Counted from the stretch's first letter, positions 42,051-46,379 are shown. The stretch: DNA of 64,000 nt from an uncultured bacterium (GCA_963716985.1 OY970323.1:1824001-1888000), one strand, 5' to 3'. The notes: generated from the letters alone by a model not told the origin. Program-made: numbers and translations.

Positions 42051-45000
42051 ATGAAGAAAGGAAAAAAAGTTTTTTTAGCGTTTATTTTGCCGGTTATTTT
42101 TTGTCTGTTTCCCTTTTTGTGCCACTCCGCAGACGAACATCCTCTGCAAACCCTTTTACATCCCCCAGCACTCGCGAAACAGCAAACCTACACCATCAAT
42201 TTCAAAAACGTTTTGATGGTAGAATACGTTCGCTTCATCAGCAAAATCTGCAGCGTCAACTTTCTTTTCGATGAAGGGGATTTGCAATTCCCCGTCACGA
42301 TCGTTTCCGAAGAGCCGATCACGGCCTCCCGCATTCTCTCAACGCTCATTCAGGTTCTCAGAATCCACGGCCTTTCTCTTCTCGAAGAAAAAAACAACCT
42401 CGTCATTCATAAAAATAACGAGGTCAAGGGAGCAGCTCCGCTTGCTCAAGAAGATCAGCCGATGGACCCATCTTTGCCGATCGTCACACGTATTTTTAGA
42501 ATACAGAACGCAAAGCCCGATTCGATCGCAAATCTCGTCCGGCCCATGCTCTCGACCGCCGCGCTTCTAGAGGTCTCTCAAGAGACCAAACAACTCTTGA
42601 TCAGCGATATTCCCGATAACATTGACAAGATCGCTGCAATCATCCACATGATCGATGCGCCCCATAGCATCTATCAGATCGAAACCTACCTAGCCAAGCA
42701 GAGCGATCCTGAAAGCCTCATCAATCTCACGCGCCAGCTGATGGCGCCGATGATCGAGCAGACCCCCTTTCTTCTCATACCGCAGCCCCCCTCTTCCGCC
42801 ATCTACATCGTATCCACGCCGCTTCTGATTGAAAAAGCTCTCGCCATCTTGAACAATCTGGACAATGCTTCCAAGACAAAGTCGAAACTTCCTCTAAAAA
42901 ATGAAAATCTCTTCATCTACAAAATTCAATTCCGATCGGCCAAAGAAGTGGAAGGAACGCTGAGCAGCATTGCAAAAAATTTGGCTGATAACGGCTACGG
43001 CGACTCCGATCTCGTGGACACCATTGCCACTTCCAAGTACATCAAGGAGACCCATTCGCTTCTCTTCATCGGCAATCCTCCTACGATCGCAAAAATCCAA
43101 GAAATACTCACCTCGATCGACAGCCTGTCTAAAGAAGCCCTGCAAGTCGAAGGGTCGACCTTCTTTACTTATAGGCCAATGCACCAAAGGGTAAACGTCG
43201 TCCAAACCGCCCTAAAGGAGATTGCAGAAAATCTCAAAGGATCCTCGATTGCCGATAAAAACCTGCTCTCCTCTCTCAACGAGGCCAAGCTTGTCCAATC
43301 CACCGGCTCCATTCTTTTCAGCGGCGATAAGCAGACGATTGCAAAAATCAAAGAACTGCTCTCCAATATCGATCTGGAGGTACCTCTGGCCGTGCAGCAA
43401 CTGGGGCAGTCCACCTTCTATATCTACAAGATCCAAAACGCTCCGCATCCCGAGATCATCACGGCCCTCAAAACCATGGGGGAAAACCTGAAAAAATCGG
43501 GCATCGAAAACCCCTATCTCTTCGACGCCATTCATAGCGTAAAGTACATACCGGAGACCAACTCTCTGCTCTTTGTCGGAGACTCTGCAACCTTAAAAGA
43601 TCTGCAAGGAATGCTTCCCTCTTTCGACGTCGATCTCTCCACTCACAAAGTGCAACAGGACAAACGCCCCTCAAGCGATCAGTTTTTGGTCTTTAAACCG
43701 CAAAGTGCTTATGGAGAAAACCTCTATCTATCGATGCACGATATTGCAAAGAATCTCGAAGAGGCCCATCTCACGGACCCCTCCTTTTTGCAAACCATTC
43801 ATAGCATCAAATGGGTCTCCTCTGCCAATGCTTTGATTTTTACCGGAGATGACGGCTCTTTAAAACGCGTCGAGTCTCTTTTGAAAGCCATGGACGTCCC
43901 CAAAGAGCCCAGTTTCTTCCTCTACCATCCCGAAAATGCTACAAAAGCCGCGATTGAGCATTACTTCCAAAATGTAGCGGACCATTTGAACAAAACGGAC
44001 CCTTCTGAACAGGAGCTCATCTCCTGTTTGAATAACGTGAAGTGGATCGAAGATTCGCAGTCTTTCCTCTTTTCAGGGCCGCAAGATTGCCTCACAAGGG
44101 TGAAAGGAATACTGCAAGAATTTGATAGCTCCGCGAAAAAAACAGCCACCGAAAAGGGCGCTTATTTTCTCTATAAGCTGCAAAATATTTCCGGAGACAT
44201 CATCGAAGAAGATCTGGATAAATTCGTCTCCAAACTCAAAATGCAAAGAATCGAAAATCCCGCTCTGGTAAGCGTCGTTGAAAACATCAAATGGGTCAAA
44301 GAGACCAACGCCCTTCTTCTCGCAGGCGATCAAAAAGCGATCGAAGAGGTCAAACAGCTCATCGCGCAATATGACGTCCCTAGAAAAGATATCGTCTCCC
44401 ATACCAAATTCTTCATGTATGAGCCCAAATACGTTCCCGCATCCACCATTGAAAGCTCTCTCAAAGACATCGCATTAAATTTACAAAAAGCAAACCTCGC
44501 GGACCCCGATCTTTTAGCGTCCATTCATAGCATCAAGCTTGTGGAGTCCACCAACTCCATTGTTTTCACGGGGACAGATGCCACTTTGAACCGCATTCAG
44601 GAGCTTCTCAAAACCATCGATATCCCTAAGGCAGCTCCCGGAGGAAAAACCACCCTCTGGGTGTATAAGATCAAAAGCGCCCCCCCCCAACAAATCATTA
44701 CGGCGCTCTCCTCGATTGCTTTCGATCTCAAGAAATCGGGAACGGCAGACAAAGAGTTTCTCGATGCATTAATGAGCCCCAAATATGACGCCCTCACCCA
44801 ATCGCTTCTCTTTACGGGAACAATAGAGGCCCTAGAAAAGGTAAAGCCTCTCGTCGACCAGTTTGACACTCCTGCCGGAGAAGAAGTGGCAAAGCCCTCC
44901 TCTTTCTTCGTCTACAAACCCCAATTCCTGACGGGGCCCGCCCTGGAAAGCATCCTCAAAGATTTTGCCGCCAATTTGCAAACTTCCGGTTTTTCCAACC

Positions 45001-46379
45001 GCGTTCTTTTCAATACCATCCAAACCGTCAAATGGGACGACACCACCAAATCCCTCATCTTTACCGGGGATGAAAAATCCATTGCGGAGATCAAAAGTCT
45101 GCTCGCTACCTTTGACGTTTCCTCTCAAGGAGTCGGCTCTCCCGTCGAATCGATTGAAGCCATTGAGAATACAAGCTTTCTCGTCTACAAGCTTCAGTAT
45201 CACAAGGGCGATGAGATTCAAGGGGCTCTGCACCAGATTGCCGCCGATCTGATTAAGTCCAACGCGAACGTAAAGGAAAGTCTCTTAAATTCGATCAACT
45301 CCATTCAGTGGATCCAGGTGACCAACTCCCTTCTTTGTTCCGGAGATCAGGAGACGATGACGCGGCTCAAAGAGCTCATCAAGAACCTCGACGTTCCTTT
45401 AAAACAGGTCTTTGTCGAGATGCTGATCATTGAGACCACACTGACCAACGTAATGGATTTTGGCCTCGACTGGGGAAGTCATCTCCAATATAAAAATAAA
45501 TTCGGCGGAAGCATCTCCAACCTTCCGGTTCCACCTAGCGGTACGTCACAACCCACCGCCGGATTTCCGCAAAGTCTTAATAATTTAAACACCAGTACTC
45601 TCCCCAATGCAAATACCAATTTGCCCTTTCAACAAGGATTTGATTTAGGGATCATTGGAGATATCATCATGCACAAGGGAAAGTCCTTTCTTTCCTTGGG
45701 ATCGCTCGTGAATGCTCTGCAGCAAGATTCCGAGACCAGCATTGTCATGACTCCCAAAATCTTAACGCAGGATAGTAAGACATCCACCATCTTCATCGGA
45801 AGAAATATTCCCTTCGTAGGATCTGCCATTAATACAACTGGCGCTTCTACCTCACAAGCTGCCAACATCGAATATCGCGATATTGGCATGAACCTCTCCC
45901 TGACTCCCTTCCTTGGAAATACCGAGGTGGTCACTCTGACCATCGTCATGGAAAATTCGACCGCTCCCGCGAGCGCTTCAGGAAGCACGATTAGCTTTAC
46001 TACGAATACCGTTACGGGAATTACCACCACCAAAACATCGATGAATACTACAGTCCATATTCCCAACCGCCACTTTCTGATCTTAAGCGGCATGATTCTC
46101 GAATCCAAAACCAGATCTAAAACGGGTATTCCCTGCCTCGGAGGGCTTCCCTGGCTGGGCGTTGCTTTTTCCGATACGCAGAAAAACCAGAGCCGCGACA
46201 ACCTGGTCATCTTCATCCGTCCCCATATCATTAATTCTTTCCAAGATATGTCGACTTTGACAGAAAACCAGGAAGATTCTTTTAGAGACCATACGGGCAC
46301 ATCCGGACTGCAAAGAGATTATGATGAATCGATCGATTCCTTTAACGGTTATGAAGAGGAAGAAGAGGAAGCCAAGTAG
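42051..46379 (+). CDS. cdsC: T3SS secretin CdsC/SctC with expanded N-domain array
   Basis: Signal peptide, N0 domain (YTINFKNV), repeated N domains, secretin core (QVFVEMLIIE, GIPCLGGLPWLG..F, LVIFIRPHII). Confidence 0.92.
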   Translation: MKKGKKVFLAFILPVIFCLFPFLCHSADEHPLQTLLHPPALAKQQTYTINFKNVLMVEYVRFISKICSVNFLFDEGDLQFPVTIVSEEPITASRILSTLIQVLRIHGLSLLEEKNNLVIHKNNEVKGAAPLAQEDQPMDPSLPIVTRIFRIQNAKPDSIANLVRPMLSTAALLEVSQETKQLLISDIPDNIDKIAAIIHMIDAPHSIYQIETYLAKQSDPESLINLTRQLMAPMIEQTPFLLIPQPPSSAIYIVSTPLLIEKALAILNNLDNASKTKSKLPLKNENLFIYKIQFRSAKEVEGTLSSIAKNLADNGYGDSDLVDTIATSKYIKETHSLLFIGNPPTIAKIQEILTSIDSLSKEALQVEGSTFFTYRPMHQRVNVVQTALKEIAENLKGSSIADKNLLSSLNEAKLVQSTGSILFSGDKQTIAKIKELLSNIDLEVPLAVQQLGQSTFYIYKIQNAPHPEIITALKTMGENLKKSGIENPYLFDAIHSVKYIPETNSLLFVGDSATLKDLQGMLPSFDVDLSTHKVQQDKRPSSDQFLVFKPQSAYGENLYLSMHDIAKNLEEAHLTDPSFLQTIHSIKWVSSANALIFTGDDGSLKRVESLLKAMDVPKEPSFFLYHPENATKAAIEHYFQNVADHLNKTDPSEQELISCLNNVKWIEDSQSFLFSGPQDCLTRVKGILQEFDSSAKKTATEKGAYFLYKLQNISGDIIEEDLDKFVSKLKMQRIENPALVSVVENIKWVKETNALLLAGDQKAIEEVKQLIAQYDVPRKDIVSHTKFFMYEPKYVPASTIESSLKDIALNLQKANLADPDLLASIHSIKLVESTNSIVFTGTDATLNRIQELLKTIDIPKAAPGGKTTLWVYKIKSAPPQQIITALSSIAFDLKKSGTADKEFLDALMSPKYDALTQSLLFTGTIEALEKVKPLVDQFDTPAGEEVAKPSSFFVYKPQFLTGPALESILKDFAANLQTSGFSNRVLFNTIQTVKWDDTTKSLIFTGDEKSIAEIKSLLATFDVSSQGVGSPVESIEAIENTSFLVYKLQYHKGDEIQGALHQIAADLIKSNANVKESLLNSINSIQWIQVTNSLLCSGDQETMTRLKELIKNLDVPLKQVFVEMLIIETTLTNVMDFGLDWGSHLQYKNKFGGSISNLPVPPSGTSQPTAGFPQSLNNLNTSTLPNANTNLPFQQGFDLGIIGDIIMHKGKSFLSLGSLVNALQQDSETSIVMTPKILTQDSKTSTIFIGRNIPFVGSAINTTGASTSQAANIEYRDIGMNLSLTPFLGNTEVVTLTIVMENSTAPASASGSTISFTTNTVTGITTTKTSMNTTVHIPNRHFLILSGMILESKTRSKTGIPCLGGLPWLGVAFSDTQKNQSRDNLVIFIRPHIINSFQDMSTLTENQEDSFRDHTGTSGLQRDYDESIDSFNGYEEEEEEAK

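Follow-up and report, generated by a model that had tools for sequence, protein, structure and literature searches.

Gene and domain organization of the secretin

We analyzed a stretch of 64,000 nucleotides from an uncultured bacterium (GCA_963716985.1, OY970323.1:1824001-1888000), which is referred to below as the window and belongs to a genome of 2,067,739 bp in a single contig. The subject of this study is sctC/cdsC, the gene for the outer-membrane secretin of a chlamydial type III secretion system (T3SS). Its open reading frame (ORF) occupied positions 42039..46379 of the plus strand, 3' of sctQ and a kinase gene, and encoded 1446 amino acids when read from GTG; the ATG at 42051 (MKKGKK) was the likelier start. 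Comparison of the full-length secretin with Pfam detected a GspD-like N0 domain (residues 53–121), ten stretches of Secretin_N (218 bits), and a Secretin domain (residues 1226–1398). A sequence-only reading of the window had noted, at 42909–45392 (residues 291–1118 of the secretin), ten tandem N3-like repeats preceded by N0 and two shorter N domains, and both the Pfam matches and the alignment of the units bore out the place, number, and kind of these domains. The order in the protein was N0, N1, N2, ten contiguous N3-like repeats (residues 290–1122), and the secretin domain, which gives this secretin thirteen N domains compared with the usual three or four. The borders of N1, N2, and the repeats were obtained by cutting the secretin by eye and then aligning the pieces.

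A hydrophobic N-terminal leader, presumed to be a Sec signal peptide, was read from the translation at residues 5–31 (42051..42131), and all features of the secretin given here lay on the plus strand. N0 (42195..42401) matched PF21305 (type_II_gspD_N0) with an E-value of 2.5e-8 and 34.1 bits (cut-off, 27). N1 was a short Secretin_N domain at residues 148–210 (42480..42668; 3e-8 when scanned singly). The N2 region, residues 211–289 (42669..42905), gave no match when scanned singly against Pfam and was located inside a stretch of residues 46–319 that aligned with residues 14–275 of XcpQ (5wln). The secretin domain, which represents the outer-membrane barrel, was located at 45714..46232 and matched PF00263 with an E-value of 9.5e-35.

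Sequence relationships and age of the repeats

The ten units were 77–91 residues long (approximately 83) and aligned almost without gaps, with pairwise identities of 18–43%. When the units were scanned singly against Pfam Secretin_N (PF03958), ten of ten matched at E <= 0.056 and nine of ten at E <= 0.001, and only R6, R7, and R10 exceeded the gathering score of 28.2 bits on their own. Type A units, with the motif YK[I/L] ... K-ETNS, were R1 (residues 290–373, 42906..43157; Secretin_N E-value, 1.2e-4), R3 (459–546, 43413..43676; 1.9e-4), R6 (707–789, 44157..44405; 1.9e-6, 28.4 bits), R8 (874–954, 44658..44900; 1e-3), and R10 (1046–1122, 45174..45404; 8.6e-8), the last being the canonical N3 beside the secretin domain. 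Type B units, with the motif YKP ... P-S[S/T]NS, were R2 (374–458, 43158..43412; 2.6e-4), R4 (547–624, 43677..43910; 4.2e-5), which had 43% identity with R7, R7 itself (790–873, 44406..44657; 9.2e-10, 39 bits), the B-like R9 (955–1045, 44901..45173; 4.4e-5), and, loosely, R5 (625–706, 43911..44156; 0.056), the weakest unit of the array. The alternation of two types proposed from the sequence was real but imperfect, the order being ABAB-B-ABAB-A.

A profile of R5 made from 20 orthologues matched the solved E. coli GspD (5wq7) with an E-value of 4.1e-12, on both N2 (residues 171–242) and N3 (residues 247–323). Together with the Secretin_N matches of all ten units, this result showed that the repeats are homologous to the N2/N3 ring domains of secretins. 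A hidden Markov model (HMM) built from the ten repeats recovered each unit of the window with 93–105 bits (95 bits for R1), a result that is circular for the window itself, and the HMM envelopes of consecutive repeats almost abutted.

The ten repeat positions aligned one-to-one across 20 genomes from several families, with 29–76% identity, and the position of R9 was monophyletic over 20 orthologues. In a tree of 200 repeats, R2 and R7 were sisters. Tandem Repeats Finder detected no array over the repeat region, and direct repeats at the DNA level were only 61–74% alike over 61 nt. Comparison with the 78% identical orthologue gave ratios of nonsynonymous to synonymous substitution rates (dN/dS) of 0.05 for N0–N2, 0.10 for R1–R10, and 0.12 for the secretin domain, which are rough figures with dS near saturation. 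The pN/pS ratio was 0.08–0.35 in every single repeat and lowest (0.08) in R10, the sole copy present in single-repeat families. From the low identity among the copies, the orthology of their positions, and the lack of a tandem array in the DNA, the repeat array is old, as the sequence-only reading had supposed, and every unit is under purifying selection. Four studies of soil and peat metagenomes had runs with short contigs at least 99% identical to the secretin gene; no length variants, indels, or joints were seen in these contigs, and the listed sequencing runs included none of RNA.

Assignment of the secretin to the T3SS

The gene order on the plus strand was cdsD, a DUF5398 gene, an 85-amino-acid ORF occupying the position of the needle gene, a TPR protein gene, a gene for a 218-amino-acid protein, sctN, sctO, a 396-amino-acid ORF, sctQ, a kinase gene, and the secretin gene. 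The inner-membrane ring protein gene sctD/cdsD (32624..34483) had the Pfam domains Yop-YscD_cpl, FHA, CdsD_PD1, CdsD_PD2, and CdsD_C, and the ATPase gene sctN (36141..37463) had ATP-synt_ab and T3SS_ATPase_C. These were followed by sctO (37469..37972; YscO-like, 1.3e-40), the 396-amino-acid ORF in the sctP/cdsP (needle-ruler) position between sctO and sctQ (37989..39179), sctQ (39186..40283; FliMN_C, 1.6e-13), and a Ser/Thr kinase gene in the pkn5 position (40334..41923; Pkinase, 4e-45; SpoIIE, 2e-9). We take this order to be that of the C. trachomatis CT664-CT674 cluster. The same gene order was found beside the secretin in most of the sampled chlamydial families.

The secretin passed the cut-off of the NCBIfam GspD equivalog TIGR02517 (388.2 bits; cut-off, 351.35) and failed that of SctC, TIGR02516 (118.9 bits; cut-off, 238.45). 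Its best solved relative among PDB sequences was XcpQ (5wln, 2.5e-38), and InvG matched with an E-value of 4.5e-9; a search of the ESM Atlas returned only ordinary GspD clusters. These scores would be expected if the protein served type II secretion, or both systems, and not the injectisome. However, the genome had a separate gspD of 742 amino acids followed by gspE and gspF (G000:C1, ~167.8–172.7 kb), which ruled out the large protein as the genome's sole secretin and was the only other secretin in the genome; in most of the sampled families, the gene under study belongs to the T3SS cluster. A type II-like sequence is, moreover, a known state of chlamydial T3SS secretins, which group with those of type II systems and of phage (pIV) (Abby & Rocha 2012; Nans et al. 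2015). We consider a role in type II secretion very improbable. Because the other secretin sits with gspE and gspF, the large protein was assigned to the injectisome, in agreement with the sequence-only reading and with the synteny of the T3SS cluster, and identified as SctC/CdsC, the type III secretin of chlamydiae, type II-like by sequence. A search of the genome contigs for related loci returned a single locus.

Distribution of the expansion among chlamydiae

A search of 5.8 billion proteins detected 472 relatives of the secretin. The best 120 of the 472 were all 1289–2266 amino acids long, and the named ones were from chlamydial metagenome-assembled genomes (MAGs) and a few Verrucomicrobia. 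The repeat HMM found 8–21 units in each of these 120, ten being the commonest number (40 of 121, including the query), in a ranking that favors proteins resembling the query. When the repeat profile was compared with 1.84 billion representatives, 208 proteins reached E <= 1e-30, the highest number of stretches being 24.

A match was present in 397 of 400 sampled genomes of the phylum. We counted the repeats in one genome from each of 44 families, with one partial gene left uncounted: 15 of the 43 counted families had 4–29 units, and 28 had a single long unit corresponding to the canonical N3. Compared with its relatives, the secretin of the window does not stand out, ten units being the commonest number among the best 120 homologues. 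With extra genomes of three families included, 61 of 89 secretins were multi-repeat. The numbers were 6–14 in the window's family (22 genomes), 4–29 in family f9 (22 genomes), and 7–13 in f8 (5 genomes); the most diverged proteins gave numbers that varied with the threshold (16, 15, or 13 in G108; 8 or 5 in G287). The secretin of Simkania negevensis (1764 amino acids) had 14 repeats, and other named members were Simkania sp. (14), Simkaniaceae MAGs (9–14), and a Rhabdochlamydiaceae MAG (14). An assembly artefact was ruled out by the same architecture in dozens of independent assemblies. In a tree built from the 400 residues at the C terminus, with the gspD of the window's genome as root, the 61 multi-repeat secretins formed one clade (low node support, 0.23) with none of the 28 single-repeat secretins inside.

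Length of the SctP-position protein

According to a review, the needle of an injectisome has a length that tracks that of SctP, the secreted ruler. The sctP-position ORF of the window consisted of a K/E/P-rich part of 260 amino acids and a conserved C-terminal domain of approximately 136 amino acids. We measured the ORF after sctO in each fetched locus that also held sctQ; both flanking genes were on the fetched stretch in 45–46 of 89 genomes. In the family with genomes of 1.0–1.2 Mb, this ORF was 283 amino acids long. The agreement, in a Chlamydia-sized genome, with CdsP, described as a tape measure of 283 residues in the Chlamydia injectisome (Nans 2015), validated the procedure. The first ORF after sctO carried the conserved C-terminal domain in all checked cases. 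A second ORF of approximately 220 amino acids in G193 and G147 was tried as the true SctP and rejected, the long first ORF also having the C-terminal domain.

The length of the sctP-position ORF increased with the repeat number of the secretin (Spearman rho 0.85, n = 45), with a slope of 16.8 amino acids per repeat. The correlation was also found among multi-repeat genomes only (rho 0.81, n = 31) and within families (rho 0.70, n = 17 in f1; rho 0.73, n = 8 in f9). Independent contrasts gave r = 0.79 and 20.4 amino acids per repeat over 44 contrasts, with the same sign in 21 of the 28 in which the repeat number changed. In the window's family, SctP was 318–339 amino acids with 6 repeats, 364–466 with 8, 396–520 with 10, 444–488 with 12, and 591 with 14. 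The lengths in f9 were 364 (4 repeats), 335–362 (6), 589 (12), and 670–700 (21), and those in f8 were 432 (7), 550 (12), and 584 (13). In the genome matching the S. negevensis record, a frame of 580 amino acids (~578 from the first ATG) was found in this position beside the 14-repeat secretin. Single-repeat families had SctP lengths of 267–398 amino acids (14 genomes). The genomes G035, with a split ORF, and G104, with an ORF of 735 amino acids, were left out of the main length test.

The neighboring genes did not follow this trend. Repeat number gave rho values of -0.16 with SctQ, 0.02 with the kinase, 0.26 with SctO, and -0.37 with SctN, all with slopes of at most about 1 amino acid, and the 218-amino-acid protein shortened with repeat number (rho -0.59). 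Contrasts gave r = 0.04 for SctQ and 0.18 for the kinase. These controls bear on the explanation that the expansion is functionless, by neutral change or slippage, and that its correlation with SctP reflects a shared tendency to expand repetitive genes. Both proteins are indeed repetitive, and repeat numbers range from 4 to 29. Nevertheless, control genes were not longer in genomes with more repeats, the repeats had a dN/dS of approximately 0.1 and no tandem array in the DNA, and their positions were orthologous in 20 genomes; we regard neutral expansion as highly unlikely.

In f8 (Simkaniaceae), part of f9, f19, and f23, sctP was followed, ahead of sctQ, by a second ORF of ~170–235 amino acids (loci L077, L089, L115, L117, L131, L136, L137, and L161). 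This ORF was identified as a short paralogue of SctP because the conserved C-terminal domain of SctP is duplicated in it.

Proposed stacking of the extra N domains as rings

From these results, we propose that the protein is the outer-membrane secretin of a chlamydial injectisome whose extra N domains probably stack as rings and make both the neck and the needle longer. Each extra N domain would form one further homo-oligomeric ring under the outer-membrane barrel, and the secretin neck and the distance between the inner and outer membranes would be longer by roughly nine ring heights than with single-N3 chlamydial secretins. With such stacking, a needle passing through the longer neck would have to be correspondingly longer, and the growth of the SctP-position protein by approximately 20 residues per repeat would match such a needle. 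We infer the fold, ring formation, and axial stacking from the homology with N2/N3 of GspD and from the precedent of Thermus PilQ; how long the machine is, and that the SctP-position protein acts as a ruler, are likewise predictions. The SctP co-variation gives only indirect support to additional rings whose stacking would extend the conduit through the periplasm. The longer periplasmic tube proposed in the sequence-only reading thus gained indirect support: the sctP-position ORF is longer by approximately 20 residues per repeat and the neighboring genes are flat.

The slope can be compared with molecular dimensions. Twenty residues span up to 7.5 nm in a fully extended chain (0.37 nm per residue) and 3 nm in an alpha-helix (0.15 nm per residue), and in Yersinia the same number reportedly corresponds to 3.9 nm of needle. 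A ring of secretin N domains is approximately 3–4 nm high. Because the range of 3–7.5 nm brackets this ring height, approximately 20 residues per repeat are compatible with one ring per repeat.

Known systems show parts of this arrangement. According to D'Imprima et al. 2017, supernumerary N domains folded as beta-alpha-beta-beta-alpha in PilQ of Thermus thermophilus stack as rings, and the six rings N0–N5 span a wide periplasm. PilQ differs in belonging to a machine for pili and DNA uptake and in having six rings, whereas the present secretin has thirteen N domains and its relatives have as many as 29 repeats. The relationship with PilQ is only distant, as no Thermus chain was found among the 27 PDB sequences matched by the secretin. 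GspD of E. coli (5wq7) and XcpQ of P. aeruginosa (5wln) are the closest solved relatives for N0–N1, the repeats, and the barrel. GspD has N0–N3 only and works with gspE/F/G, a task that falls here to the separate 742-amino-acid gspD. CdsC of C. trachomatis (921 amino acids) shares the position after sctQ and the kinase gene and the type II-like lineage within a chlamydial injectisome, but its extra length is a Chlamydia-specific hydrophilic domain of approximately 250 residues before N0 (Nans 2015; Abby & Rocha 2012); in the present secretin, N0 begins at residue 53, right after the leader, and the extra length consists of nine additional N3-like domains. The proteobacterial SctC proteins InvG, YscC, and MxiD have the same role in the injectisome but represent a separate secretin lineage (Abby & Rocha 2012) with weak similarity and few N domains. 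The SctP-position protein resembles the YscP/SctP and FliK rulers in its place between sctO and sctQ, in having a long low-complexity part and a conserved C-terminal domain, and in its length scaling; it differs in lacking a significant match to T3S4 or Flg_hook, and its ruler function in chlamydiae is a prediction.

The extra N domains might also be arranged otherwise than along the axis. They could serve as a platform in the periplasm on which, for instance, envelope proteins, peptidoglycan remnants, or chaperones dock, or they could enclose the neck as a second wall. The alternation of two repeat types (ABAB-B-ABAB-A) could point to domain pairs whose partners differ. This arrangement gives no reason for a ruler-position gene to lengthen with repeat number, though, and the domains to which the repeats are homologous form stacked rings in the solved GspD, so that we consider it improbable.

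Several points weigh against stacked rings matched by a ruler. Inclusion of G035 and G104 lowered rho to 0.75 (n = 47), the independent contrasts were calculated on the secretin gene tree and not on a species tree, and the range of SctP in single-repeat families (267–398 amino acids) overlaps the 396 amino acids of the window's own protein. This protein had no match in Pfam and NCBIfam, four of 31 orthologues touched Pfam Flg_hook (PF02120) only weakly (best E-value, 0.052), and a profile of the SctP C-terminal domain had no match among PDB sequences. Because there is no significant family match, the ruler role is supported by position and architecture and by what has been published on CdsP. 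Furthermore, a strict ruler is not a feature of every system, Spa32 of Shigella being an example given in a review. Finally, a straight stack of 21–29 rings would exceed ~80–100 nm, which is hard to fit into small chlamydial cells.

The last point keeps alive a different view of the neck, in which the array of N domains is compressible or flexible, as a spring or telescopic tether that tracks the width of the periplasm, and in which its resting length falls far short of the product of repeat number and ring height. The width would change upon contact with a host or from one developmental form to another. The basal body of C. trachomatis contracts from 34 to 29 nm, and Nans 2015 ascribes the flexibility to linked periplasmic domains; the HMM envelopes of the repeats leave almost no gap, and packing could vary. 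Against a flexible neck, SctP scales up to 21 repeats (670–700 amino acids), with a slope near one ring height per repeat, as would be expected of a needle that must pass through the neck in its extended form. We consider a flexible neck rather unlikely, less so than a docking platform.

On the reading of stacked rings, the copy number of N domains may act as an evolutionary length dial, with 4–29 rings compared with one, a ruler co-tuned at approximately 20 residues per ring, and basal bodies from approximately 35 to at least 100 nm. We advance this only tentatively, with a little more doubt than belief. If such a dial exists, local widths of the periplasm would match the lengths of the basal bodies; if basal bodies are no longer, the co-variation of repeats and SctP needs another explanation. 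Length matching in a trans-envelope machine is known mainly from engineered ruler mutants, with Thermus PilQ as a natural outlier. The chlamydial secretins form a large natural series in which two parts of a single machine, the neck of the secretin and the protein in the ruler position, appear to vary in length in step with each other, and this suggests that part of the environmental chlamydiae differ from the Chlamydia model in envelope geometry at the injectisome. The series also yields a quantitative and testable prediction in a growable species, S. negevensis, with 14 repeats and a SctP-position ORF of ~578 amino acids. Our literature search found no description of N-domain expansion in chlamydial secretins or of a link to SctP, although cryo-tomography of environmental chlamydiae by Pilhofer et al. 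2014 could bear on the matter. The scale of the expansion, the natural series, and the SctP co-variation appear to be undescribed; N rings and rulers as such are already known.

Other long or unusual secretins

The repeat profile also touched proteins of 3.4–5.1 thousand residues, among them giant secretins of 3567–5054 amino acids (P0243, P0249, P0250, and P0254–P0264). Three of these that were scanned (P0243, P0250, and P0256; 3567–4535 amino acids) had N0, 32–45 stretches of Secretin_N, and one secretin domain. One cluster, with names taken from P0254/P0266, was labelled Phycisphaerales or Phycisphaerae bacterium (Planctomycetota), and its members were annotated as hypothetical. These giants share with the chlamydial secretins the order of N0, a very long tandem array of Secretin_N, and a secretin domain, and differ in the repeat subfamily, with only partial profile matches, and in the phylum. 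Our literature search found no paper on giant secretins of Phycisphaerae. An enlarged periplasm of Planctomycetota is described in PMC11958385. The Phycisphaerae proteins fit the logic that the number of N domains goes with envelope width, as an independent and larger expansion; if that logic is true, a match between the number of N domains and the width of the envelope could account for their secretins with 32–45 domains.

Chlamydial secretins were long in at least three different ways, and multiplication of N3-like units was found only in the clade containing the window's secretin. In the family with genomes of 1.0–1.2 Mb, the frame was 936 amino acids long, with N0 starting at residue 282 and one long N3-type unit. 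Extensions before N0 were also present in L045 (G064; 2516 amino acids, N0 at 1771) and L065 (G264; 1572 amino acids, N0 at 790), and SctP stayed short (300 and 327 amino acids) with secretins extended in this way. In L040 (G025; 1763 amino acids), approximately 1200 residues between N0 and N3 had no assigned domain.

Multi-repeat families also had an orphan short secretin of 468–572 amino acids, consisting of N0, one N domain, and the secretin domain. It nested inside the multi-repeat SctC clade (L075/L156:7134-8717 in G031; L157–L160) and had no adjoining secretion genes in G031; none was detected in the window's genome at E<1e-10. One family with genomes of 2–3.6 Mb had two sctC paralogues (955 and 924 amino acids) on the same strand in L032 (G023:C7:59100-66642), separated by a copy of the 325-amino-acid downstream gene described below.

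Neighboring genes

The kinase in the pkn5 position had a Ser/Thr kinase domain at residues 42–236 and a C-terminal SpoIIE/PP2C-like phosphatase domain at residues 338–512. Comparison with NCBIfam gave nothing for the sctP-position ORF, the 218-amino-acid protein, and the 85-amino-acid ORF in the needle position. A lipoprotein-like ORF of 325 amino acids (46321..47298, plus strand) overlapped the end of sctC and had, besides a lipobox-like leader (…FSTFGC…), hydrophobic segments in its C-terminal part. By tblastn, it was found downstream of sctC in approximately 90 fetched loci of single- and multi-repeat families alike, and it matched no family in Pfam or NCBIfam. We regard it as a candidate accessory (pilotin-like) protein of the secretin; for the Chlamydia system, no known pilotin exists according to Nans 2015.

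Upstream of cdsD, the window contained an ankyrin-repeat protein gene (26381–27376) and a candidate SseC-like translocator gene (29775–31067; a weak match below the Pfam cut-off), and between them (within 26381–31067) ORFs with no assigned family. On the downstream side of the T3SS cluster, the genes at 49295–57692 were of mobile or defense-like character and comprised a UPF0236-like ORF and genes for a small methyltransferase, a YhcG/DUF1016 nuclease, a DUF6399 protein, and an IS66 transposase.

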